A DNA stretch of 64,000 nt, from assembly GCF_058153355.1 (NCBI RefSeq), contig NZ_CM177019.1. One strand, 5' to 3'. Made by a program: the position numbers and the translations under genes. Under the pieces are notes generated by a model. The model saw only the letters and a list, made by a program, of their open reading frames with translations, had not been told where the DNA came from and did no database searches. Positions 40,238 to 54,505 of the stretch are shown piece by piece (positions within the stretch are counted from its first letter, which is position 1; the number at the start of each line of letters is the position of its first letter).

Positions 40238-41731
40238 TCAGTCTTTCAATGGACGTAATTCATTGTTGTAACTGGTGTAACTGCCTTCAACGGTAAGTAG
40301 ATTGCCGTTTTCATCAAGATGCGCCGCATTGAGTTGTCGAGTTTCATTACGCCGCTTCGCATCACGTACCAGCCCATCGCCTACGTAATAAATATAGTGG
40401 TCATCATGAGCAAAGGTATCTGATAATTGACCATTGGCGTATTTAAACCACGTCCATTGGCCTTTCAGTTCAAATTGCTCAACCGTGTTTTCATCAATAA
40501 AATACGTAAAGCGATCGTCATGTGCTAAATAATTTAATGGTGTGCCATCGTGGCTTTTATACCACTGCCATTGCCCATTAATATCAAAAATAGTCACATC
40601 ATCGCTCGCAATGAAATAAAATTTATTCCCTATAATATTAACGCCTTCATGTAATTCTTGTTGTGGGTCGGGTAAATGAATAACCGACAGTGTTTTTTCG
40701 ACCCCAGAAACATACTTCACCAGATAGAGCGAATCTTTATATTGCGCCACATTCTTCGTCAGCGGGCGAAAATATTCCGGATCAACATCAGGAATGGTCG
40801 CAACCCGGCAGTCATTGGCACGCCAGGAAACGTCACGCGTCATCCATGTTACTTTATCCCGCTGTAGGTCAAACGTATTTCGGCACTCTTTACCGAACGC
40901 ATAACGTTTCTCCCCGTCCTTATCGCGATAAATCAGCAGGGAACCGGCTATCCAGCGCACAATATGAAAGGTGTCCGGATCGGCGTTGATGGAATCTCCG
41001 TTCACAAAGACCTGCGATTTTGTCCGCCAGATTGTATCCCAGGGTGCGGGATGCCCCCAATTTTCACAAGTGTTTGGCAAATAAAGAATATTCCGTTGGG
41101 CCCAGGGTTTAATGTCAAGAATAGAATATCCTTGCGTACTACCCAACCAGCGTCCCTGAAAGTAAAGATTGCGACGATCTTTCAGTACATCCGCGGAATC
41201 AATTAAATTCATCCTCCCCCCCACCTGTTGCAGCGAATCCATATCGACCTGCTTTTCGCCGTGATTATCATCCGTGCGTTCGCCATCAAAATAGAGGCTG
41301 TCTTTATCAGCGGCAAAACGCCCCCATGCGCGGAATGTTGCGGCATCGACTTTCGGTGTTCCCGGCGGGTTCTGAACTATTTTCCCTGCCCATAAAATAT
41401 GGCGACCATCGGTCAACCAGTCGAAACGCCAACTACCGTTAGTTCTGATATTAGTGCCAGCATCTACCTGAACATAATCATTATTGATATCATCAGGAGA
41501 ATCATATTTATCATCAGTGCCGTTGGGTACGCGGCGAAGTTGCTTAAACTTCACCTGCGATAAATGAATATCCGGAAAATAGAGTCCGTAACCATCACTA
41601 TCTTCAACGATATATTTTGTTCCTTGCCCCCACGGCTGGTAGTAAAACGCAGCAGCAGGCACACCGGAGCAGGCTAGTGAGGAGGTTGAAAATAAAGCCA
41701 GTGCGAGACAAACGGGTTTAATTGGCAACAT
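40238..41731 (-). CDS. Secreted repeat protein, paralogue 1 (DKNYY-like repeats; function unknown)
   Basis: 497-aa product with signal peptide MLPIKPVCLALALFSTSSLA; repeated D-K-x-x-[LIV]-Y-[FY] and A-D-x-x-T/S-F motifs (e.g. VDAATFRAWGRFAADKDSLYFDG); AGGA RBS. Confidence 0.75.
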   Translation of the reverse strand: MLPIKPVCLALALFSTSSLACSGVPAAAFYYQPWGQGTKYIVEDSDGYGLYFPDIHLSQVKFKQLRRVPNGTDDKYDSPDDINNDYVQVDAGTNIRTNGSWRFDWLTDGRHILWAGKIVQNPPGTPKVDAATFRAWGRFAADKDSLYFDGERTDDNHGEKQVDMDSLQQVGGRMNLIDSADVLKDRRNLYFQGRWLGSTQGYSILDIKPWAQRNILYLPNTCENWGHPAPWDTIWRTKSQVFVNGDSINADPDTFHIVRWIAGSLLIYRDKDGEKRYAFGKECRNTFDLQRDKVTWMTRDVSWRANDCRVATIPDVDPEYFRPLTKNVAQYKDSLYLVKYVSGVEKTLSVIHLPDPQQELHEGVNIIGNKFYFIASDDVTIFDINGQWQWYKSHDGTPLNYLAHDDRFTYFIDENTVEQFELKGQWTWFKYANGQLSDTFAHDDHYIYYVGDGLVRDAKRRNETRQLNAAHLDENGNLLTVEGSYTSYNNELRPLKD

Positions 41732-41763
41732 AGCATCATCCTGAAGCTGTTAGCGTGAAGAGG

Positions 41764-42921
41764 TTATTTAAATAAGGGTTTAAGACCGCTCGGGGGTTGC
41801 TTCACCGATGACCAACCTCCCTTACCTAAGTTATAACGCAGCCATTCACCTTGTTGGGCGTGCTCTTTCCCAATTCCAGTCGCTTGTTGAGTGTAAAGCT
41901 GCCCGTCTGTTGATATAAACGTGTTAGTTAATCCCCAACTACCACCTGCTTCAAGTGAGTCGGTGAGATCCTCTGGCTTGAGATTAATCAACTCCCCTTC
42001 GCCCAGGGCGTTGGTTGTTACTTTATAAATTTGGTTCTTATATAAACCGGTATTCCGAACAAACAGATAAAAATATTCCGGATCAACTCCCGCCAGCGTT
42101 TCATAAACACAATCACTACCCGCTGGCGTTGCTTCTTGTTTGAGCCAGGACACAGTCTTCAAACCAATATTAAATGACGCACAACTGTGACTAATATCCT
42201 CCAACTTATAGTCATGCTCACCGCTTTTATCGCGATAAACCAACCGTTCGCCAGGCATCCAACGTTTAATCTGAAAAGTTTTGCGATCGGCGGGCAGTGG
42301 CTTGCCATTAACGATCACCTGCGAATTTGTCAGCACAACAAATTGCAGGGCGGAATCATGCCGCACGATTTGAAATCCATCGGCATGACCCAACCAGCGC
42401 CCTTTATGCCAGAGGCCATTTTTATCACGCAGTAAATTCCAGATGTCCGTCTCTTCCAGCGTTGACATATCCACCTGCTTATCACCGCTATTATCATCGG
42501 TACGCTGGCCGTCAAAATAGATACTGCGTTTATCGGCAGCGAAAGCGCCGAATGCCTGAAAACTGGCAGCGTCGACTTTAGGTTTACCGGGGGGATTTTT
42601 CAGGACTTTGCCTGCCCAAATAACAAAGCGTCCATCGGTGAGCCAGGAATGCTGGCAATCCCCCTTATCATCGCAATCGAACTTATCGGGATTAAAATCG
42701 GACAGTAACCGGCAATCTTGCTTATTAGCTAAATTGGCAATGCGCCAGAGGCGGGAAAAATTAACGTCTGGTAATTCGGAGAGGATCTCATCTTCTTTTC
42801 CCTTCTGTTCGGCAACGTAAACCGTGCCTTTATCATGCTGGCGGTAATAAAAATCCGCGCCCCAGGAAGGTAAAATGGAGAGAGGTAATGCGGCGATTAA
42901 TAACCAACTGCGCTTAACCAT
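41764..42921 (-). CDS. Secreted repeat protein, paralogue 2 (DKNYY-like repeats; function unknown)
   Basis: 385-aa product from ATG 42921 with signal peptide MVKRSWLLIAALPLSILPSWGA; shares long identical or similar blocks with paralogue 1 (WLTDGRxxxWAGKxxxNPPGxPKVDAAxFxAxGxFAADKxSxYFDGxRTDDNxGxKQVDM). The ORF-track N-terminal extension (to 43080) overlapping cycA is rejected. Confidence 0.7.
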   Translation of the reverse strand: MVKRSWLLIAALPLSILPSWGADFYYRQHDKGTVYVAEQKGKEDEILSELPDVNFSRLWRIANLANKQDCRLLSDFNPDKFDCDDKGDCQHSWLTDGRFVIWAGKVLKNPPGKPKVDAASFQAFGAFAADKRSIYFDGQRTDDNSGDKQVDMSTLEETDIWNLLRDKNGLWHKGRWLGHADGFQIVRHDSALQFVVLTNSQVIVNGKPLPADRKTFQIKRWMPGERLVYRDKSGEHDYKLEDISHSCASFNIGLKTVSWLKQEATPAGSDCVYETLAGVDPEYFYLFVRNTGLYKNQIYKVTTNALGEGELINLKPEDLTDSLEAGGSWGLTNTFISTDGQLYTQQATGIGKEHAQQGEWLRYNLGKGGWSSVKQPPSGLKPLFK

Positions 42922-43013
42922 AGTGAACTCTGCAACGAGTGGCAAAGATCCACGGTAAGCTCGCGCCTGAGGGCTGTCTATGATGGTAGATTTTTTTAGG
43001 AATATATAAAGAC

Positions 43014-43035
43014 AAAGGCACCCGCAGGTGCCTTT
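43014..43035 (-). terminator. Rho-independent terminator downstream of cycA
   Basis: aaaggcacc-cgca-ggtgccttt stem with flanking T/A tracts, 20 nt after the cycA stop. Confidence 0.55.
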
Positions 43036-43054
43036 CAGAGTTATAAACGCGGCA

Positions 43055-44458
43055 TTACTTCGCCATGCGTTTTTTACCAATAAACAACCAGCCCAACCCC
43101 AGCGCGATAAACCACAGCGGGGTAACTATCAGCGCCTGGCGAGTGTCATCTTCCAGTGTCAGCAGCACGACCACGAACACAAAGAACGCCATACATACCC
43201 AGCACATCAGCTTGCCGAGCGGCATCTTGTAGATAGACTTCTCATGCAGGTGCGGACGCTGTTTGCGATACACCAGGTATGAGCAAAGGATAATCGTCCA
43301 GACGAACATAAACAGAATCGCGGAAACAGTCGTGATCATCGTGAACGCGCCAATTACACTTGGATTCACATACAACATCACCACGCCGCCAAGCAGACAG
43401 ATACAAGAGAAGGTCAGCCCTTTCGCGGGTACGGCGCGCTTAGAAAGTTTAGCGAACGCTTTCGGCGCAACACCTTCCTGGGCCAGACCAAACAGCATAC
43501 GGCTGGTAGAGAAGACGCCGCTGTTAGCGGAAGACGCCGCAGAGGTCAGCACCACAAAGTTGATTACGCTGGCAGCCGCAGGCAAACCCACCAACACAAA
43601 CAATTCAACAAACGGGCTTTTCTCCGGGACTACTGAACTCCACGGCGTCACGGACATAATCACAATCAGCGCGAAGACGTAGAACATAATGATACGGATC
43701 GGAATGGAGTTAATCGCACGTGGCAGTGATTTCTCCGGATCTTTCGTTTCCGCAGCGGTTGTACCGACCAGCTCAATCCCCACGAAAGCGAAAACCGCTA
43801 TCTGGAATCCGGCAAAGAAGCCACTTAAACCTTTCGGGAACCAGCCGCCGTCATTCCACAAATGCGCGAATGACGCTTCCACACCGGTCGGTGACTGAAA
43901 GTGCATCGCCACCATGACCAGGCCGACGACAATCAGTGACACGATGGCGACAATTTTGATCATCGCAAACCAGAACTCCATCTCACCGAACATTTTCACG
44001 GTGGCGAGGTTAAGCGTCAGCAGCAGCACTATCACCGCCAGCGAGGCGACCCAGTCGGAGAGATCGGGGAACCAGAACTGAGCATAGGCAGTGATGGCCA
44101 CCACGTCCGCCATACCGGTAACCACCCAGCAGAACCAGTAGGTCCAGCCAGTGAAATATCCCGCCCATGGCCCCAGTAAATCGGAAGCGAAGTCACTAAA
44201 AGATTTGTATTCCAGATTCGAAAGCAGCAATTCCCCCATTGCCCGCATCACGAAAAAGAGCATAAAACCGATGATCATATAAACGAAGATGATCGACGGT
44301 CCGGCAAGGCTGATTGTTTTACCGGACCCCATAAACAACCCCGTACCAATGGCCCCACCAATGGCAATAAGCTGAATATGTCGGTTTGTGAGATTGCGCC
44401 GTAGCGACTGTTCAGCCGGAGCCTGATCATCGGCAACGACTTTTACCTGATCTACCAT
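43055..44458 (-). CDS. cycA: D-serine/D-alanine/glycine:H+ symporter CycA (APC family)
   Basis: 467-aa product MVDQVKVVADDQAPAEQSLRRNLTNRHIQLIAIGGAIGTGLFMGSG... Confidence 0.95.
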   Translation of the reverse strand: MVDQVKVVADDQAPAEQSLRRNLTNRHIQLIAIGGAIGTGLFMGSGKTISLAGPSIIFVYMIIGFMLFFVMRAMGELLLSNLEYKSFSDFASDLLGPWAGYFTGWTYWFCWVVTGMADVVAITAYAQFWFPDLSDWVASLAVIVLLLTLNLATVKMFGEMEFWFAMIKIVAIVSLIVVGLVMVAMHFQSPTGVEASFAHLWNDGGWFPKGLSGFFAGFQIAVFAFVGIELVGTTAAETKDPEKSLPRAINSIPIRIIMFYVFALIVIMSVTPWSSVVPEKSPFVELFVLVGLPAAASVINFVVLTSAASSANSGVFSTSRMLFGLAQEGVAPKAFAKLSKRAVPAKGLTFSCICLLGGVVMLYVNPSVIGAFTMITTVSAILFMFVWTIILCSYLVYRKQRPHLHEKSIYKMPLGKLMCWVCMAFFVFVVVLLTLEDDTRQALIVTPLWFIALGLGWLFIGKKRMAK

Positions 44459-45604: not shown

Positions 45605-46243
45605 ATGCCCGGGCGCTTTGAACTAAAACCAACCCTGGAGAAAGTCTGGCACGCGCCGGACAATTTTCGCTTCATGGACCCGCTACCGCCGATGCATCGT
45701 CGGGGGATCATTATTGCCGCTATTGTATTGGTGGTCGGATTTCTACTCCCGTCTGATGATACGCCAAACGCGCCGGTGGTGACGCGTGAAGCACAGTTAG
45801 ATATTCAGTCGCAATCACAACCGCCGACAGAAGAACAGCTGCGGGCGCAATTAGTCACACCACAAAATGATCCTGATCAGGTGGCTCCGGTCGCTCCAGA
45901 ACCGATACAGGAAGGCCAACCGGAAGAGCAGCCGCAAACCTCGCAAGTGCAACCTTTCCAGCCAGATAGCGGAATTGACAATCAATGGCGCTCTTATCGT
46001 GTCGAACCCGGTAAAACAATGGCGCAGCTGTTCCGCGACCACGGACTGCCCGCTACCGATGTCTATGCAATGGCGCAGGTAGAAGGCGCGGATAAGCCAC
46101 TGAGTAATTTGCAAAATGGGCAGATGGTGAAAATCCGCCAGAACGCCAGCGGCGTGGTGACGGGCTTAACCATTGATACGGGAAATAATCAACAGGTCCT
46201 GTTTACCCGCCAGCCGGATGGCAGTTTTATTCGCGCGCGGTAG
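45605..46243 (+). CDS. ytfB: Cell-division protein YtfB (OapA/LysM-like)
   Basis: 212-aa product from ATG 45605 ([42 protein letters not shown]...). Confidence 0.9.
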
Positions 46244-46874
46244 ATGAAGGGTCAACCAGAAGCCAGCTAAGGATCGTCTCTTTGATGACCTTACGCCTGG
46301 CTTCCAGTGCCTGCGGTGAAACCATACTGATGTGATAAACCAGGCCAAGCGTATGTTGGTTGATCAAATAATATCCTCCAAGAGCAGCAATATTAATATT
46401 CACCTGCAACGGGTCGATATCTGGCTTAAAAATATTGCGCCGTTTGCCTTCAGCTAATAATGACTCCATTAACTGTAAGTGTGCGTGGTTAATTTCTAAA
46501 AGGCGCTGTGATTTTGCATAATGCACCCCTTTACTCTGGTTTTCACTATGCACAATTTTTAAAAACCAGGGGTTAGCAATGTAATAATCCCAGGTGAAAT
46601 CGATAATTTTCTCAATGGCTTTTTGTGGCGGAAGACCTGAGAAATCAAGGGATTTTTCTTTTTGCCGAATATCATTCCAGGTATATTCCAGCACTTCGAT
46701 AAATAAATTTTCTTTATTACCAAAGTGATGATAAACCGTCTGTTTACTGCACTCCGCGGCCTTGACGATATTATCGACTCTGGCCCCTTCGTAACCATAT
46801 TCGGCAAATTCATTAACCGCACATAACAACAGCTTTTCCTTCAGGCTTTGTACGTTGCTGGTATCAAGATACAT
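46227..46874 (-). CDS. TetR/AcrR-family transcriptional regulator (divergent from the catabolic operon)
   Basis: N-terminal TetR helix-turn-helix ([44 protein letters not shown]); start placed at ATG 46874 (the ORF track begins at a GTG at 46934). Confidence 0.75.
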
Positions 46875-46996
46875 TCCGCTTCCCCACGTCTTCTTCGTGA
46901 TGACTATCTTAACCCGATTTGTTAGAAGCTCCACTAAAATGGCTAAAAACTCGCAATTTCATCGGGTTATCAAATGCTCTGTGATCATTATCGCAT

Positions 46997-47018
46997 ATCA
47001 ACCAACTAGATGGTTGAT
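46997..47018. promoter_or_regulatory. Perfect 8-bp inverted repeat ATCAACCA-N6-TGGTTGAT in the divergent promoter region (candidate TetR operator)
   Basis: atcaaccaactagatggttgat, between the regulator gene and the first gene of the operon. Confidence 0.4.
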
Positions 47019-47085
47019 CTTTCTTGCCACACATTGCAAGCTAATCGTCACTTAAGGAAATAATATTCAAAAAGAGGGTTATTGT

Positions 47086-47877
47086 ATGAAGTCAACACGT
47101 CCTGTTGCTGTCATCACTGGAGCCGCACGTGGTATTGGAAAGGGCTGTGCACTGGAACTTGCGCGTGGCGGATTTAATCTGCTGATTAATGATCGTCCGG
47201 ATGCCGACAGCGTAGAAAAATTACATGCCACACAACAAGAATGTCTGGCGGAAGGCGTGGAAGTCATTTGCTTCCCTGCCGATGTCGGCGATCTCTCCTT
47301 GCATGAAGAGATGCTCGACGCGGCGCAAAACCAGTGGGGGCGTCTGGACTGCCTGCTCAATAACGCCGGGATTTCAGTGAAAAAACGCGGTGACCTCCTC
47401 GACCTCGAACCAGACAGCTTCGACCAAAACATTGCCATTAACACCCGTGCGCCGTTCTTCCTTGCTCAGGCATTCAGTAAGCGATTACTGGCACAGCCGA
47501 AACCGGAAGCAGAACTGCCGCACCGCTCGATTATTTTTGTCAGTTCCATAAACGCCATCATGCTGGCGATGAATCGCGGCGAATATACCATTGCCAAAAC
47601 TGCCGTCTCCGCCGCAGCTCGCCTGTTTGCCGCTCGCCTTTGCAATGAACAAATTGGCGTTTATGAAGTGCGCCCTGGCCTAATCAAAACCGATATGACC
47701 ATTCCGGCAACGGCTTATTACGACGAACTGATTGCTAAGGGGTTAGTGCCGTGGGGACGTTGGGGTTATCCGGCTGATATTGCCTCAACGGTCCGCGCGA
47801 TGGCGGAAGGCAAACTGATTTACACCTGTGGTCAGGCGGTCGCCATCGACGGCGGCTTAAGTATGCCGCGCTTCTGA
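47086..47877 (+). CDS. Short-chain dehydrogenase/reductase (SDR) family oxidoreductase
   Basis: 263 aa; TGAARGIGKG cofactor motif, NNAG, catalytic YTIAK; RBS AGAGGG. Confidence 0.85.
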   Translation: MKSTRPVAVITGAARGIGKGCALELARGGFNLLINDRPDADSVEKLHATQQECLAEGVEVICFPADVGDLSLHEEMLDAAQNQWGRLDCLLNNAGISVKKRGDLLDLEPDSFDQNIAINTRAPFFLAQAFSKRLLAQPKPEAELPHRSIIFVSSINAIMLAMNRGEYTIAKTAVSAAARLFAARLCNEQIGVYEVRPGLIKTDMTIPATAYYDELIAKGLVPWGRWGYPADIASTVRAMAEGKLIYTCGQAVAIDGGLSMPRF

Positions 47878-47886
47878 GGCTGAATC

Positions 47887-48729
47887 ATGAGAGATCTGTT
47901 ACAACGCCCGGATTTATTCAGTATCAATACTGCGACACTGGGCTATAAAACACCGCTACCTGCCATTATTGATGCCTGCGCCGCACGCGGTATTGGCGCG
48001 ATTGCCCCCTGGCGCAGGGAGTTACAGGGTGAAGATCTCCAACAAATCGCCCGCCAGCTTGCTGCCAGTAACATGAGCGTTTCCGGTTTGTGCCGTAGCA
48101 CCTATTACACCGCGCCGACGCTGACGGAACGCAAACTGGCGATTGATGATAACCGCCGGGCGCTGGACGACGCCGCTGTACTGAACGCCGCCTGTTATAT
48201 GCAGGTGGTTGGCGGTCTGCCAATGGGAACAAAAGATCTGTACGAAGCGCGGGAACAGGTGAAACAAGGGATTCGCCAGTTGCTGCCACATTCGAAAGAT
48301 GTCGGCGTACCAATTGCGCTGGAGCCGCTACACCCGATGACCGCCGCCGATCGCTCTTGCCTGTGCACGTTACGTCAGGCGCTGGACTGGTGTGATGAAC
48401 TCGATCCCGATGGGGAGTTTGGCCTCGGCGTGGCGGTGGATGTTTATCACGTCTGGTGGGACCCGGATCTCGCCAGTCAGATCCTGCGTGCCGGAAAGCG
48501 CATCCTCGCGTTTCATGTTTCCGACTGGCTGGTGCCAACCACCGATTTAGTCAATGACCGGGGAATGCCGGGAGATGGCGTAATCAATATTCCGTCTATT
48601 CGTCGCCAGGTAGAAAATGCCGGATTTAACGGTGCTATTGAACTGGAAATATTCTCACCGTACTGGTGGCAAAAAGATATTAACAGCACACTGGATATTA
48701 GCGTCGATCGCATCGCGCATTATTGCTAA
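47887..48729 (+). CDS. Sugar-phosphate isomerase/epimerase-like TIM-barrel protein (xylose-isomerase-like fold)
   Basis: 280 aa; pattern typical of the AP-endonuclease-2/xylose-isomerase-like TIM-barrel family (family-level call only). Confidence 0.7.
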   Translation: MRDLLQRPDLFSINTATLGYKTPLPAIIDACAARGIGAIAPWRRELQGEDLQQIARQLAASNMSVSGLCRSTYYTAPTLTERKLAIDDNRRALDDAAVLNAACYMQVVGGLPMGTKDLYEAREQVKQGIRQLLPHSKDVGVPIALEPLHPMTAADRSCLCTLRQALDWCDELDPDGEFGLGVAVDVYHVWWDPDLASQILRAGKRILAFHVSDWLVPTTDLVNDRGMPGDGVINIPSIRRQVENAGFNGAIELEIFSPYWWQKDINSTLDISVDRIAHYC

Positions 48730-48732
48730 GGA

Positions 48733-49515
48733 ATGATCATGAGTGACCAACCCGTTCTGTTCAGCAGAGCGGCGGCTTCCTGCCGCCTGACATTGAACCG
48801 TGAAGATAAATGTCATGCTATTAATGAAGAAATGATCGAATCTCTCGACCATTATTTAAATGAAATTGAAAACGACACCACATTACGATTAGTCGAATTA
48901 ACGGCAACCGGCGATAAATTCTTTTGTGCAGGCGGCGATATTAAATCGTGGTCAGCCTATTCGCCATTAGATATGGGCAGAAAATGGATTAAACGCGGCA
49001 ATGACGTTTTTAATCGCCTGCGCAACTTACCCCAATTAACCGTTGCGAATCTCAACGGTCATACCATCGGCGGCGGTATTGAACTTGCCTTGTGCTGTGA
49101 TATTCGTATTGCCCGCCCCGGCGCGAAATTCTCTAACCCGGAAGTGATGCTCGGCATGGTACCTGGCTGGATGGGCATTGAACGCGTGCTTAATCAGGTC
49201 GGTCCGGTGGTCGGTCGCCAGATGCTGATGCTGGGTAAACGCCTGACGGCGCAGGAAGCTCAGGCGGCGAATTTAATTGATGAAGTGGTAGAAAAAGAAC
49301 AGGTGGAAAGCTGGATGGCGAATCAGTTAGCGCAACTGGAAAAATGTGGTCCGGTAGCGCTGGCACATATTAAGCAACTGATTCTGGCGCTGGAAAATAA
49401 ACACGCCGATTACCCGCACCAGTTACTGGCTGGATTAATGTCCGCCACTCAGGATTGCCAGCAGGCGACGCGCGCATTTGCCGAAAAAGCCAGCGTGAGC
49501 TTCCATAATCAATAA
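48733..49515 (+). CDS. Enoyl-CoA hydratase/isomerase (crotonase) family protein
   Basis: 260 aa; crotonase signature region FFCAGGDIKSW ... NGHTIGGGIELALCCDIRIA. Confidence 0.85.
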   Translation: MIMSDQPVLFSRAAASCRLTLNREDKCHAINEEMIESLDHYLNEIENDTTLRLVELTATGDKFFCAGGDIKSWSAYSPLDMGRKWIKRGNDVFNRLRNLPQLTVANLNGHTIGGGIELALCCDIRIARPGAKFSNPEVMLGMVPGWMGIERVLNQVGPVVGRQMLMLGKRLTAQEAQAANLIDEVVEKEQVESWMANQLAQLEKCGPVALAHIKQLILALENKHADYPHQLLAGLMSATQDCQQATRAFAEKASVSFHNQ

Positions 49516-49524
49516 GGAAATTGT

Positions 49525-51066
49525 ATGCGTAAGATAACAACCGCCGAGACACTGGCGGCGCAAATTCAGGACGGCGCAACCATTGCCATTAGCGGTAATG
49601 GCGGTGGCATGGTGGAAGCGGACCATATTCTGGCTGCTATTGAAGCGCGTTTCCTGCAAACCGGACACCCGCGCGATCTGACATTAATCCACTCACTGGG
49701 CATTGGCGATCGCGACTGCAAAGGCACTAACCGCTTCGCTCATGCAGATATGCTCAAACGCATCATTGCCGGACATTTTACCTGGTCGCCCAAGATGCAG
49801 GATCTGGTGAAAAACAATGCTATTGAAGCCTACTGCTTCCCTGGTGGCGTAATTCAGGCACTGCTGCGGGAGATCGGTGCCGGACGTCCAGGGCTTTTTA
49901 CCCACGTTGGGCTGGGATCGTTTGTTGATCCGCGCAACGGCGGCGGTAAGTCGAACGCCAGCACCACTGAGGATCTGGTAGAACTGATTGAAATCGACGG
50001 TGAAACCAAACTTCGTTATCGCCCTTTCAAAGTGGACTACGCGATTTTGCGTGGCACTTATGCCGATCCGCGTGGCAACGTCAGCCTCGAAGAAGAGGCG
50101 ATTGATATGGATAGCTATTCCATGGCGCTGGCAGCACACAACAGCGGCGGCAAAGTGTTCGTACAGGTGCGCGATGTGCTGGAAGCTGGTGCCATTGAAC
50201 CACGCCGGGTCAAATTACCGGGCATTCTGGTTGATGGCATCGTTGAACACCGCGAACAACCGCAAACCTATCTTGGCGGTTACGACCTGACCATCAGCGG
50301 TCAGCATCGCCGTCTAAGTTCTAACGACGCTATTGAACTGGTTAGTCATCCGGTGCGCCGCCTGATTGCCCGTCGGGCAGCACGCGAACTGGTGGCTGGC
50401 GCTTCAACCAACTTTGGCTTTGGTATTCCGGGCGGTATTCCAGGAGTAGCGCTGCGCGAAGGCGTGCCTTATCAAAGTTTATGGCTGAGCGTAGAACAGG
50501 GCGTACATAACGGCATGATGCTGGATGATGCTCTGTTCGGCTGCGCCCGTAACGCCGATGCCATTATTCCATCACTCGATCAATTCGAATTCTACAGTGG
50601 CGGAGGGATCGATATCACCTTCCTCGGCATGGGAGAGATGGATCAGTACGGTAACGTCAACGTCTCCCATCTCAATGGCAATCTCATTGGCCCCGGCGGA
50701 TTTCTCGAAATTGCGCAAAACGCCCGTAAAGTGGTGTTCTGCGGCACGTTCGACGCCAAAGGTAGCAAGATTGATGTAACACCAGATGGCTTGCATATTG
50801 CCCAGTCAGGTCAAATCCCTAAACTGGTTACCCAGGTGGAAAAAATCACTTTTAGCGCCGCCTACGCACAGCAAAGCGGTCAGGAAGTGTTGTATATCAC
50901 TGAACGTGCAATATTCCAGTTAACGGCAGAAGGCGTTGAATTAATTGAAATCGCACCAGGTGTGGAGATTGAGCGCGACATTCTGCCATATATGGCTTTC
51001 CGTCCAATTATCAATCAGCCACGCCTGATGGAAAGTAGCCTGTTTACGCCGATGGAGGATGCATGA
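49525..51066 (+). CDS. Fused alpha/beta family-I CoA-transferase (acyl-CoA:acetate/3-ketoacid CoA-transferase-like)
   Basis: 513 aa; resembles fused short-chain acyl-CoA transferases (YdiF type); stop overlaps the next start (ATGA). Confidence 0.75.
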   Translation: MRKITTAETLAAQIQDGATIAISGNGGGMVEADHILAAIEARFLQTGHPRDLTLIHSLGIGDRDCKGTNRFAHADMLKRIIAGHFTWSPKMQDLVKNNAIEAYCFPGGVIQALLREIGAGRPGLFTHVGLGSFVDPRNGGGKSNASTTEDLVELIEIDGETKLRYRPFKVDYAILRGTYADPRGNVSLEEEAIDMDSYSMALAAHNSGGKVFVQVRDVLEAGAIEPRRVKLPGILVDGIVEHREQPQTYLGGYDLTISGQHRRLSSNDAIELVSHPVRRLIARRAARELVAGASTNFGFGIPGGIPGVALREGVPYQSLWLSVEQGVHNGMMLDDALFGCARNADAIIPSLDQFEFYSGGGIDITFLGMGEMDQYGNVNVSHLNGNLIGPGGFLEIAQNARKVVFCGTFDAKGSKIDVTPDGLHIAQSGQIPKLVTQVEKITFSAAYAQQSGQEVLYITERAIFQLTAEGVELIEIAPGVEIERDILPYMAFRPIINQPRLMESSLFTPMEDA

Positions 51067-53135
51067 GTCAGCTTGATGACACCCTCCTTGATGCGCTGAC
51101 GCACGTCACTTTCCCGAAGGGTTTTGTGTCAGCAGAGCCAGCGTCAATTGTCACGGTTGAAGATGTCGATTACCCGATCTGGCAAGTTGATGCGCTAGTC
51201 GTTGGTAGCGGCGCGGCAGGGCTGCGCGCAGCGGTTGAACTTAAGCGCCGCCAGCAAAATGTGCTGATCGCCTCCGCCGGGTTATATATGGGGACATCGG
51301 CATGTTCTGGTTCCGATAAACAGACGCTGTTTACCGCCGCTACCGCGGGCAACGGCGATAACTTCGCCAAACTGGCGGAAGCACTGGCGAGCGGTGGGGC
51401 GATGGATCACGACACCGCTTATGTCGAAGCGGTAGGTTCTCTGCACACTCTTGGCGGGTTGCAATATCTTGGTCTGGAATTACCGGAAGATCGCTATGGC
51501 GCAATTCTTCGTTATCAAACCGACCATGACGAAGCCGGGCGAGCAACCTCGTGTGGGCCGCGTACTTCTCGCCTAATGGTGAAAGTATTGCTGGAGGAAG
51601 TGCAGCGTCTTGCCATACCACTACTGACCAGTGCAACGGTGATTAAGCTCCTGCATCAGCACGGAGAGAATGGCGAAGATCGCGTTGCGGGGGCTATTCT
51701 CGCAACCGGTTCCCGCGCCTATAACCCCTGGGGGCTGGCTATTGTGACGGCGCCCAATGTGGTACTGGCAACGGGCGGACCGGGCGAGCTTTATCGCGAC
51801 AGTGTTTATCCACATAAATGCTTCGGCTCGCTGGGACTGGCACTGGAAGAAGGTTTGACGCTAACCAATCTGACCGAAAGCCAGTTTGGTATAGGCACGC
51901 CGCGCAGCACGTTTCCGTGGAATTTGTCCGGCACCTATGTACAGGTGATCCCATATATCTATTCCGTGGATGCCGGGGGCAACGAGTATAACTTCCTCGC
52001 AGATTACTATCGCACCACCCAGGAGCTGGCTTCAAACATCTTCCGTAAAGGCTATCAGTGGCCGTTTCACGCCACACGAGTGATGGATTTTGGCTCCAGC
52101 TTGTTAGATATGGCAGTAGCGCAAGAGCAGCAATCAGGACGTCAGGTATTTATGGATTTCAATCGCAATCCTGAACCTGTGCCGGGTGACCTGCCGTTCT
52201 CATTAGATCGACTGGACGACGACGTTCGCGCGTATCTGGAAAATAACGACGCTCTGGCACCATCGCCCATCGAACGACTGCAACGAATGAATCCGCTGTC
52301 TATCTCGCTGTATAAGATGCACGGTTACGATCTCACCACGCAGCCATTGCAGTTTGCCATGAATAATCAGCATATAAATGGCGGCATTGAAGTGGATATC
52401 TGGGGGCAAACCTCCCTGCCCGGATGTTTCGCCGTGGGGGAAGTTGCTGGCACACACGGCGTCACTCGCCCTGGTGGTGCGGCATTGAATGCCGGGCAGG
52501 TTTTTGCTGTTCGTCTGGCACGTTTTATTGGTTGCACGCAAAAACGTAATATTGATGGAGATATAGCACAGCTGGTAGCTCCGGCACTGGCTTCTATAAG
52601 AGAGATCATTACTCAGGCGCACGATAACGGGACCGGGATGCCGTTGTCGGTTGTGAGGGAAAAAATTCAGGCACGAATGTCTGACTACGCGGGATTTATT
52701 TGCCATGCCGATAAAGTCCGACGCGCCACTCGTGATGCCCTGCTATTGAACGAATTTGTGCAACGGCATGGATTGGCAATCAAACATGTGGGTGAAGTTG
52801 CCGAGCTATTTATGTGGCGGCATATGGCGCTGACTTCTGCCGCGGTATTAACACAATTAACGCATTATATTGATGCTGGTGGTGGTAGCCGTGGGGCGCG
52901 TATGGTTATTGATCCACAAGGCAAATGCCTACCACAAACTCGTCGCGGCGCAAAAGAAGAATGGCGTTTTCGCTCTGAACTCGCTGAAGACAAAAATCAC
53001 AAATTAACAATTCAATATTCGCAAGGTTCTTTTATTACCGAAGTAAAGTCTTTACGTATGCAACCGTGTATTAACGGTATTTACTTTGAAAAAAACTGGC
53101 CAGACTTTTTAAAGGGAGACATTTACACACAGTAA
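51063..53135 (+). CDS. FAD-dependent oxidoreductase (fumarate-reductase/succinate-dehydrogenase flavoprotein-like superfamily)
   Basis: 690 aa; N-terminal dinucleotide-binding motif DALVVGSGAAGLRAAVEL and a second glycine-rich region (VLATGGPGELY). Confidence 0.75.
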   Translation: MSQLDDTLLDALTHVTFPKGFVSAEPASIVTVEDVDYPIWQVDALVVGSGAAGLRAAVELKRRQQNVLIASAGLYMGTSACSGSDKQTLFTAATAGNGDNFAKLAEALASGGAMDHDTAYVEAVGSLHTLGGLQYLGLELPEDRYGAILRYQTDHDEAGRATSCGPRTSRLMVKVLLEEVQRLAIPLLTSATVIKLLHQHGENGEDRVAGAILATGSRAYNPWGLAIVTAPNVVLATGGPGELYRDSVYPHKCFGSLGLALEEGLTLTNLTESQFGIGTPRSTFPWNLSGTYVQVIPYIYSVDAGGNEYNFLADYYRTTQELASNIFRKGYQWPFHATRVMDFGSSLLDMAVAQEQQSGRQVFMDFNRNPEPVPGDLPFSLDRLDDDVRAYLENNDALAPSPIERLQRMNPLSISLYKMHGYDLTTQPLQFAMNNQHINGGIEVDIWGQTSLPGCFAVGEVAGTHGVTRPGGAALNAGQVFAVRLARFIGCTQKRNIDGDIAQLVAPALASIREIITQAHDNGTGMPLSVVREKIQARMSDYAGFICHADKVRRATRDALLLNEFVQRHGLAIKHVGEVAELFMWRHMALTSAAVLTQLTHYIDAGGGSRGARMVIDPQGKCLPQTRRGAKEEWRFRSELAEDKNHKLTIQYSQGSFITEVKSLRMQPCINGIYFEKNWPDFLKGDIYTQ

Positions 53136-53227
53136 TTTTCAATATTTACTCTGTACCTGATTTTTATTGCCTATTACATGGAAATACCAACAACCAGGGT
53201 TTATTAATATAATTAAAAGGTTTAAAA

Positions 53228-54505
53228 ATGAATAAAATAAAGAATTATCGATGGCATATGATTGCCCTCGTATGCTTTATCACTGTAATCAATTATCTGG
53301 ACAGAACGGCGTTAGGTATTGCGGCTCCAACGATTATGGAGACAACCGGAATAACCAAAGAACAATATTCATGGATTGTCAGTGCATTCCAGTTGGCCTA
53401 TACATTGGGGCAACCGGTAATGGGCTTCTTTATTGATACCGTGGGTCTGAAGTTAAGTTTTGCGATATGTGCCGCAATCTGGGGCCTGGCGACAATGGGG
53501 CATGCCTTGACAGGAACATGGTCAGGTCTGGCATTTATGCGCGCCCTGATGGGTTTCAGCGAAGCATCGGCAATTCCTGCGGGTGTAAAAACCGCATCAA
53601 CATGGTTCCCGGCAAAAGAGCGTGGCGTGGCGACAGGTGTTTTCAATATGGGCACCTCACTCGGCGCGATGCTTGCTCCACCGTTGATTGCCTGGTGCAT
53701 TATGTTTCATAGCTGGCAATTTGCGTTTATTGTCTCAGGTAGCCTTGCTTTACTCGCGGCTTTATTTTGGTTCTTTTGTTATAAAGATCCAAAAGATGCT
53801 AAACGCCTTTCTGATGAAGAGCGCCACTATATTGAGTCTGGGCAAGAACAGCATCTTAAAACAGATAAGAAAGAAAAAACGTCAATCAAGCATATCCTCA
53901 GCCAACGTAATTTCTGGGGGATTGGCATCGCGCGTTTTCTCGCTGACCCGGCATGGGGAACCATTAACTTCTGGGTACCGATTTTCTTCGTCGAAACGCT
54001 GCATTTTAGCCTGAAAGAAATTGCCATGTTCGTCTGGCTGCCTTTCCTGCTGGGCGATCTCGGCTGTTTAGCCAGTGGTTTTGTCGCGAAGTTCTTCCAC
54101 GATCGCGGCGTGAGTTTAATTAACTCACGAAGAATTACCTTCACTATTGCAGCCGTCATTATGATGACGATTGGTCTGGTGAGTATTGTCGAAAATCCCT
54201 ACATCGCCGTATTACTGATTAGCATTGGCGCATTCTCGCATCAATGTCTTTCTACTGTAGCAGCAACTCTGGGCGGTGACCTATTCAAAAAAGACGAAGT
54301 AGCTACCGCAGTGGGTATGGCAGGAGCCTGTGCGTGGAGCGGTCAGTTGATTTTCAACCTGTTCATCGGGGCATTCGTTCACATTATCGGCTTCGCGCCG
54401 TTCTTTATTGCCCTGGCTTTCTTTGACATTATTGGTGCTATTGCGTTGTGGACGCTTATCAAAGTTAAAGATGAAGAACCACAAGTACAGTTAGCTACCC
54501 ACTAA
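53228..54505 (+). CDS. MFS transporter, anion:cation symporter (ACS) family, ExuT-like (hexuronate / sugar-acid type)
   Basis: 425 aa, about 12 TM helices; N-terminus (MNKIKNYRWHMIALVCFITVINYLDRTALGIAAPTIME...WFPAKERGVATGVFNMGTSLGAMLAPPLIAW) closely parallels hexuronate-transporter family proteins. Confidence 0.8.
   Translation: MNKIKNYRWHMIALVCFITVINYLDRTALGIAAPTIMETTGITKEQYSWIVSAFQLAYTLGQPVMGFFIDTVGLKLSFAICAAIWGLATMGHALTGTWSGLAFMRALMGFSEASAIPAGVKTASTWFPAKERGVATGVFNMGTSLGAMLAPPLIAWCIMFHSWQFAFIVSGSLALLAALFWFFCYKDPKDAKRLSDEERHYIESGQEQHLKTDKKEKTSIKHILSQRNFWGIGIARFLADPAWGTINFWVPIFFVETLHFSLKEIAMFVWLPFLLGDLGCLASGFVAKFFHDRGVSLINSRRITFTIAAVIMMTIGLVSIVENPYIAVLLISIGAFSHQCLSTVAATLGGDLFKKDEVATAVGMAGACAWSGQLIFNLFIGAFVHIIGFAPFFIALAFFDIIGAIALWTLIKVKDEEPQVQLATH

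Follow-up and report, generated by a model that had tools for sequence, protein, structure and literature searches.

The closest described systems to the locus analyzed in the present study are the TetR-family repressors and their targets, such as TetR-tetO, UidR-uidA, and BetI-betT (E. coli) and FadR/YsiA (Bacillus), all of which use the same TetR helix-turn-helix and helical ligand domain as the regulator described below. In divergent repressor/operator systems of this family, the repressor gene lies approximately 200 bp from its target and a palindrome is located in the promoter of the target. RutR of E. coli recognizes the RUT box TTGACCAnnTGGTCAA, a 16-bp consensus with ACCA/TGGT half-sites, and a single RutR dimer contacts two successive major grooves (PMC2952853). 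Another point of reference is provided by class I CRP promoters of the lac type, in which a CRP site at approximately -61.5 and weak -35 and -10 hexamers are combined with control by CRP and a specific repressor, and in which the operator O1 lies downstream of the start.

The locus that we describe here shares much of this design. The window, namely the whole 64-kb stretch of DNA that was analyzed, is a segment of an Escherichia chromosome, approximately 92% identical to most E. coli genomes and 99.3% identical to a few. A gene for a TetR/AcrR-family regulator and a six-gene operon diverge from ATG codons at 46874 (minus strand) and 47086 (plus strand), and the 211 bp between them correspond exactly to the limits 46875-47085 that a preliminary description of this DNA had given for the region. 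The same arrangement was found in all orthologs. The features to which we refer are as follows.

46227-46874, minus strand: gene for a 215-aa TetR/AcrR-family regulator, intact here and orthologous to the K-12 pseudogene ytfA
46906-46911, minus strand: -10-like hexamer of the regulator promoter, TAAGAT, recognized by consensus and conservation; predicted start near 46899
46910-46969, no strand: second inverted repeat, TAACCCGAT (46910-46918) and ATCGGGTTA (46961-46969), judged non-functional or lineage-specific
46980-46995, no strand: CRP-binding site TGTGATCATTATCGCA, centered at 46987.5 and abutting the palindrome; consensus match and conservation
46997-47018, no strand: palindromic operator candidate ATCAACCAaCTAGaTGGTTGAT, centered at 47007.5; statistics, orthologs, and PWM
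47014-47019, plus strand: -35-like hexamer TTGATC in the right arm of the palindrome, proposed role
47037-47042, plus strand: weak -10-like hexamer CAAGCT, proposed role; predicted operon start near 47049
47074-47078, plus strand: Shine-Dalgarno sequence GAGGG, 7 nt before the ATG of the SDR gene; GAGG is kept in orthologs
47086-54505, plus strand: six-gene operon, the presumed regulated target, defined from ORFs and Pfam/NCBIfam
47086-47877, plus strand: SDR, first operon gene
47887-48729, plus strand: xylose-isomerase-like TIM barrel
48733-49515, plus strand: enoyl-CoA hydratase (crotonase)
49525-51066, plus strand: family-I CoA-transferase
51063-53135, plus strand: fumarate-reductase-like flavoprotein, 690 aa
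53228-54505, plus strand: MFS transporter of the ACS family (D-galactonate-transporter subfamily)

Regarding K-12, the whole operon and the 5' half of the regulator gene have been deleted, and the 3' remnant between ytfB and yjfZ is the pseudogene ytfA. The full locus is kept in approximately 3130 of 5426 complete E. coli genomes (about 58%), and the operon is also present in relatives from Salmonella to Leminorella, in only part of Salmonella. Previously, ytfA was treated as a variably present TetR-family gene (PMC6790063), and the other mention of it in the literature is as a pseudogene of K-12; our literature search found no description of the operator of this regulator, of its binding, or of the function of the operon. 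Elsewhere in the window, on the minus strand at 40238-43080, ytfE and cycA are separated by two hypothetical genes of approximately 497 aa and 390-438 aa. They occur at full length in only 270 of the 5426 complete E. coli genomes; when partial matches are included, the number is 628 (e.g., IAI39 and CE10). The genome with 99.3% identity at the operon locus lacks them, and this gene pair is an accessory insertion.

The same 648-nt CDS of the regulator is annotated by RefSeq in a 99.3% identical genome, and its product contains the Pfam domains TetR_N (PF00440, residues 19-61, E = 2e-13) and TetR_C_29 (PF17938, E = 3e-30). The AF2 model of the protein (pLDDT 92.5) is all-helical with 12 helices, and the top Foldseek matches of this model were all TetR-family proteins, the closest of which were PDB 3npi and RutR. 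The best match by sequence and structure was 3npi (DIP1788 from Corynebacterium diphtheriae; profile E = 9e-24 and TM 0.79, over both domains), at an identity of 23-25%; it is a structural-genomics entry, the title and molecule name of which state no function, ligand, or operator. RutR is the closest functionally characterized structural match to the model, with a TM of 0.73-0.79 and only 19% identity in sequence. Outside its own family, the best NCBIfam and PDB sequence matches of the regulator included acyl-CoA-sensing TetR proteins of the Bacillus FadR types, and its score was far under every NCBIfam equivalog cut-off.

The preliminary description had pointed to a perfect palindrome in the intergenic region as a candidate operator of the TetR-family protein. 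This palindrome was confirmed to the base, with the arms ATCAACCA at 46997-47004 and TGGTTGAT at 47011-47018 on either side of the spacer ACTAGA at 47005-47010, and 10 of its 11 pairs match because the spacer holds CTAG. Symmetry of this degree over 22 nt (at least 10 of 11 pairs) occurs only twice in the window, and was reproduced in only 0.16% of the shuffled versions of the 211-nt intergenic region (5000 dinucleotide shuffles, p = 0.0016); under a weaker criterion, i.e., perfect 8-nt arms separated by no more than 10 nt, there are 33 examples in the window, and 3.5% of the shuffles of the region contain one. A PWM constructed from the orthologous sites gave 36 bits at the palindrome and 10 at the runner-up in the 64 kb. 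The other 22-nt palindrome with 10 of 11 pairs, AAAGGCACCCGCAGGTGCCTTT at 43014-43035, is a G+C-rich, terminator-like hairpin just past the 3' end of cycA and is probably the intrinsic terminator of that gene.

The comparison covered 15 orthologous regulator-operon loci with repressors that are 57-97% identical, in at least three genomic neighborhoods, many of them from closely related enterobacteria. These loci include four other Escherichia, Salmonella, Klebsiella spallanzanii, Lelliottia, Entomohabitans, and Leminorella, together with five distant lineages, the regulators of which are 57-66% identical; the scan of the genome collection yielded 10 loci. Between the regulator and the SDR gene, the core AACCAAC-N4-TGGTTG was invariant across the 15 loci with a sole exception (L020), the left arm of which reads GACCAAC with G at the first core position. 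This operator sequence has not previously been described among divergent TetR systems. When the loci were aligned on the motif without gaps, the mean was 1.63 bits per column in the palindrome, versus 0.4-0.7 in the flanks, and the helix-turn-helix residues of the regulator were nearly invariant across the ortholog set sharing the palindrome. Homologs of the TetR_C_29 type at 32-38% identity, from Halomonas, an alphaproteobacterium, a spirochaete, and a clostridial MAG, had unrelated neighbor genes with the motif absent, and were uninformative. The symmetry is kept by invariant base identity without compensatory change, which is the pattern of a protein-binding site and not that of an RNA or DNA hairpin.

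A 30-nt probe centered on the palindrome was found in 3143 of the 5426 E. coli genomes, at one place in each, compared with 3130 operon carriers, and it was at least 96.7% identical in 3086 genomes, although the whole locus is only approximately 92% identical. Searches by blastn with this probe, which need approximately 19 or more matching bases, found no further copies of the motif in E. coli genomes that would indicate a larger regulon. The comparative evidence, including the core invariant across 15 loci, strongly supports the earlier proposal, and we estimate a probability of roughly three in four that the neighboring TetR-family repressor, the ortholog of YtfA, uses the palindrome as its operator.

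The link between this repressor and the palindrome was drawn from sequence comparison, and other regulators of E. coli also recognize ACCA/TGGT-type half-sites, as in the RutR box TTGACCAnnTGGTCAA (PMC2952853); both points leave some room for a different dimeric factor, global or unlinked, that would occupy the palindrome while the TetR protein acts elsewhere or on another target. We consider this to be unlikely because the palindrome is unique in E. coli genomes and occurs only where the regulator and operon are found, and because it travels with the regulator-operon pair into unrelated contexts (at least three different genomic neighborhoods) and distant lineages. Furthermore, the intergenic region offers the TetR protein no alternative site that is both conserved and symmetric. 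Boxes of the PdhR type read TGGT-N3-ACCA, a spacing that does not fit the palindrome. RutR, which senses uracil, has many targets, whereas the palindrome described here occurs only once per genome. Its ACCA and TGGT half-sites are separated by 6 bp versus 2 bp (ACCA-N2-TGGT) in the RUT box (PMC2952853), and, thus, the palindrome is not a RUT box and its geometry must differ from that of RutR.

Adjacent to the palindrome is a CRP site that was absent from the preliminary description. The sequence TGTGATCATTATCGCA (TGTGA-N6-TCGCA) matches TGTGA-N6-TCACA at 9 of 10 positions. Since such matches are not rare in the window (two found versus 1.5 expected), the site is supported by its position and conservation: at least 8 of 10 positions match in all 15 orthologs, the varying positions differ among them, and the CRP site and the palindrome keep a constant center-to-center distance of 20 bp, from which a single locus deviates by 1 nt. 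In a CRP ChIP-seq study of ETEC H10407, TGTGATCACTATCGCA, located between ETEC_4557 and ytfA, was among 111 high-confidence targets (PMC4287617 Table 1), and the center of the peak was listed at approximately 190 bp from the motif, within ordinary ChIP resolution (PMC4287617). In the H10407 sequence, TGTGATCACTATCGCA abuts the same palindrome. The CRP site is the only element here with experimental support, which comes from ChIP-seq on the ortholog in ETEC H10407 (PMC4287617). GATC (Dam) sites are present in a half-site of CRP (46982-46985) and in the -35-like right arm of the palindrome (47016-47019), and are kept in almost all orthologs; bound proteins could shield these two sites from methylation.

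The promoter that we propose for the operon is weak. Its -35-like hexamer TTGATC is identical in 14 of the 15 orthologs (TTGTTC in the remaining locus, L007), and the -10-like hexamer follows exactly 17 nt after it in every ortholog, despite diverged spacer sequences. The variants of the latter (CAAGCT, CATCTT, CATTTT, CATCGT, and TAAGTT) all have an A in the second position and a T in the sixth, and agreement of the proposed -10 with the consensus is limited to two or three of the six positions. A sigma-70 promoter scan at default stringency found nothing, which would fit a weak promoter that depends on an activator; the proposed promoter was drawn from conservation in the alignment of the orthologs. 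With a start at approximately 47049, CRP would be centered at approximately -61.5, as in a class I promoter, and the center of the operator would lie at approximately -41.5, over the -35. As a possible alternative, a class II layout would place CRP at approximately -40.5 with GATCTT (47016-47021) as the -10, position 6 of which is not conserved; in this layout too, the core promoter would be covered by the operator. The proposed class I layout resembles that of lac in the position of the CRP site, the weak hexamers, and the proposed combination of CRP with a specific repressor. It differs from lac, in which O1 lies downstream of the start, in that the candidate operator here covers the -35, downstream of the CRP site and upstream of the -10.

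Conservation in the palindrome is asymmetric. TTGATC is under stricter conservation than its counterparts in the left arm. At the outer end of the right arm, GATC is constant, whereas ATC at the outer end of the left arm is variable, and on the left side A-C at 47005-47006 is invariant although it lacks a symmetric partner; therefore, part of the conservation reflects the -35 and not the repressor. From this, it may be argued that the block is conserved only as core promoter DNA, i.e., for the -35, for docking of the alpha-CTD next to CRP, and for spacing, and that its symmetry is incidental, particularly as the right arm holds a -35-like hexamer conserved beyond the needs of symmetry and the block lies exactly where the alpha-CTD sits at class I CRP promoters. 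This explanation appears slightly less probable than that of a different dimeric factor. The left arm AACCAAC, which mirrors GTTGGTT, is as invariant as the right and has no promoter-consensus role, and 10 of 11 pairs rarely match by chance (the p value of 0.0016 given above). Moreover, in a distant lineage known from a metagenome (L021, 4200-4416; regulator 59% identical), the motif occurs in two copies, one over the -35 and the other just after the -10; the first reads CGGTTG, while the second matches the core exactly and is placed where no -35 is needed and where a repressor site is expected. In the same locus, the -10 of the regulator promoter is directly followed by an AACCAAC half-site, and these extra sites suggest tighter repression and possible autoregulation in that lineage.

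Returning to the palindrome as the operator of the adjacent repressor, we note that it would serve only one of the two promoters in the region. The preliminary description had referred to a divergent promoter region, which is accurate in that the two genes diverge, but the region does not hold one shared promoter; it contains two back-to-back promoters, the predicted starts of which are separated by approximately 150 bp, and the operator is part of the operon promoter alone. The -10 of the regulator promoter, which takes the form TATGAT, TATAAT, or TGnTATAGT in the orthologs, is kept at approximately 33-38 nt upstream of the ATG throughout the 15 loci. The regulator appears to be transcribed from a separate proximal promoter, near which a PWM scan of the window detected no operator-like site (best -10 bits), and, thus, its autoregulation is not indicated in this genome, a difference from other divergent TetR systems, with the promoter of the regulator approximately 100 bp away and without a site. 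In Entomohabitans (L005, 8700-8960), approximately 210 bp of extra G+C-rich DNA is present between the regulator promoter and the CRP-operator module, which implies that the two promoters are separable units. An A-tract block, AAAATGGCTAAAAA at 46935-46950, is located upstream of the weak -35 of the regulator promoter and may act as its UP element; the block is kept in Escherichia, Salmonella, and Klebsiella as AAAAAGGnnAAAAA.

The preliminary description had also drawn attention to a second inverted repeat in this part of the region. The repeat is present with perfect 9-nt arms, although its spacer is 42 nt and not 35-40 nt as stated, and we found little reason to regard it as a notable element. 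Perfect arms, the left one of which abuts the conserved -10 of the regulator promoter, and a single compensatory double change in E. whittamii (TAACCTGAT with ATCAGGTTA) are what might be cited for a second regulatory site, e.g., for looping or as an autoregulatory operator of the TetR gene. A function of this type is very unlikely considering that repeats of this class are common (54 in the window, and 4% of the shuffles of the region), that pairing in nine relatives (74% of cells) is the same as the mean of shuffled sequences, with 316 of 500 shuffles attaining this value, and that the three central pairs are broken in 5-6 of these nine. In addition, the arms are unlike the operator motif (best PWM score -10 bits), and a 42-nt spacer is atypical for a dimeric factor. 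Conservation of the outer bases has another cause, namely that the left arm adjoins the -10 of the regulator. As a functional site, the repeat was rejected on the grounds of chance expectation and the lack of conservation as a repeat, and we judge it to be a product of chance or lineage-specific.

The remaining alternative, that the palindrome is a hairpin acting as an intrinsic terminator or as another RNA or DNA structure, was raised by a terminator scan that flagged it (8-bp stem and 6-nt loop followed by CTTTCTT) and by its folding as single-stranded DNA at -6.4 kcal/mol (z = -4.5), but may be dismissed as highly improbable because there is no upstream plus-strand gene to terminate (the TetR gene being encoded on the minus strand), the stem is weak with G-C at 3 of 8 pairs and the T-run is interrupted, the orthologs show no covariation, there is no Rfam match, and the palindrome would be untranscribed with the predicted start.

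If the palindrome is the operator of the YtfA ortholog, a repressor dimer, or a pair of dimers, would bind the two AACCA/TGGTT half-sites. The candidate operator lies between the CRP site and the weak -10 and covers TTGATC, and a repressor bound over the -35 would keep RNA polymerase off the promoter, even in the presence of cAMP-CRP. When the substrate is available, a metabolite of the pathway would bind the C-terminal domain of the repressor and cause its release, after which CRP at approximately -61.5 would activate the six genes. That the inducer is a CoA thioester is a reasonable guess, and no more, which we make because the regulator resembles acyl-CoA-sensing TetR proteins and the operon begins CoA chemistry with a CoA-transferase. 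The combination of a local TetR-family repressor with global control by CRP is conventional regulatory biology, and has not previously been described for this operon.

Regarding the products of the operon, the gene order after the regulator is identical in every ortholog long enough to show it, and a PWM scan found no second operator before the MFS gene (best -6 bits). NCBIfam gave only generic or sub-threshold matches for the operon proteins, and sequence searches against the PDB returned only distant or uncharacterized relatives of the flavoprotein and the TIM-barrel protein. The operon probably encodes a CoA-dependent organic-acid pathway without characterized close homologs, in which uptake by the ACS-family MFS transporter would be combined with the CoA-transferase, crotonase, SDR, a TIM-barrel isomerase or dehydratase, and the flavoprotein. 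A more specific proposal, namely that the regulator and operator control such a pathway with a repressor that senses a CoA-thioester intermediate and acts at an operator with an unusual ACCA-N6-TGGT geometry, to which two dimers may bind, is offered tentatively and may well be incorrect. If it is true, the operator and inducer would be a handle for identifying the substrate of the pathway, and the loss of the pathway from K-12 would account for its being overlooked.

Since the operon has been reduced to the ytfA remnant in K-12, neither its function nor its regulation has been studied. The definition of a candidate operator, a CRP site, and a predicted promoter offers an experimental route to the inducer, which would point to the substrate of a catabolic pathway in gut enterobacteria.
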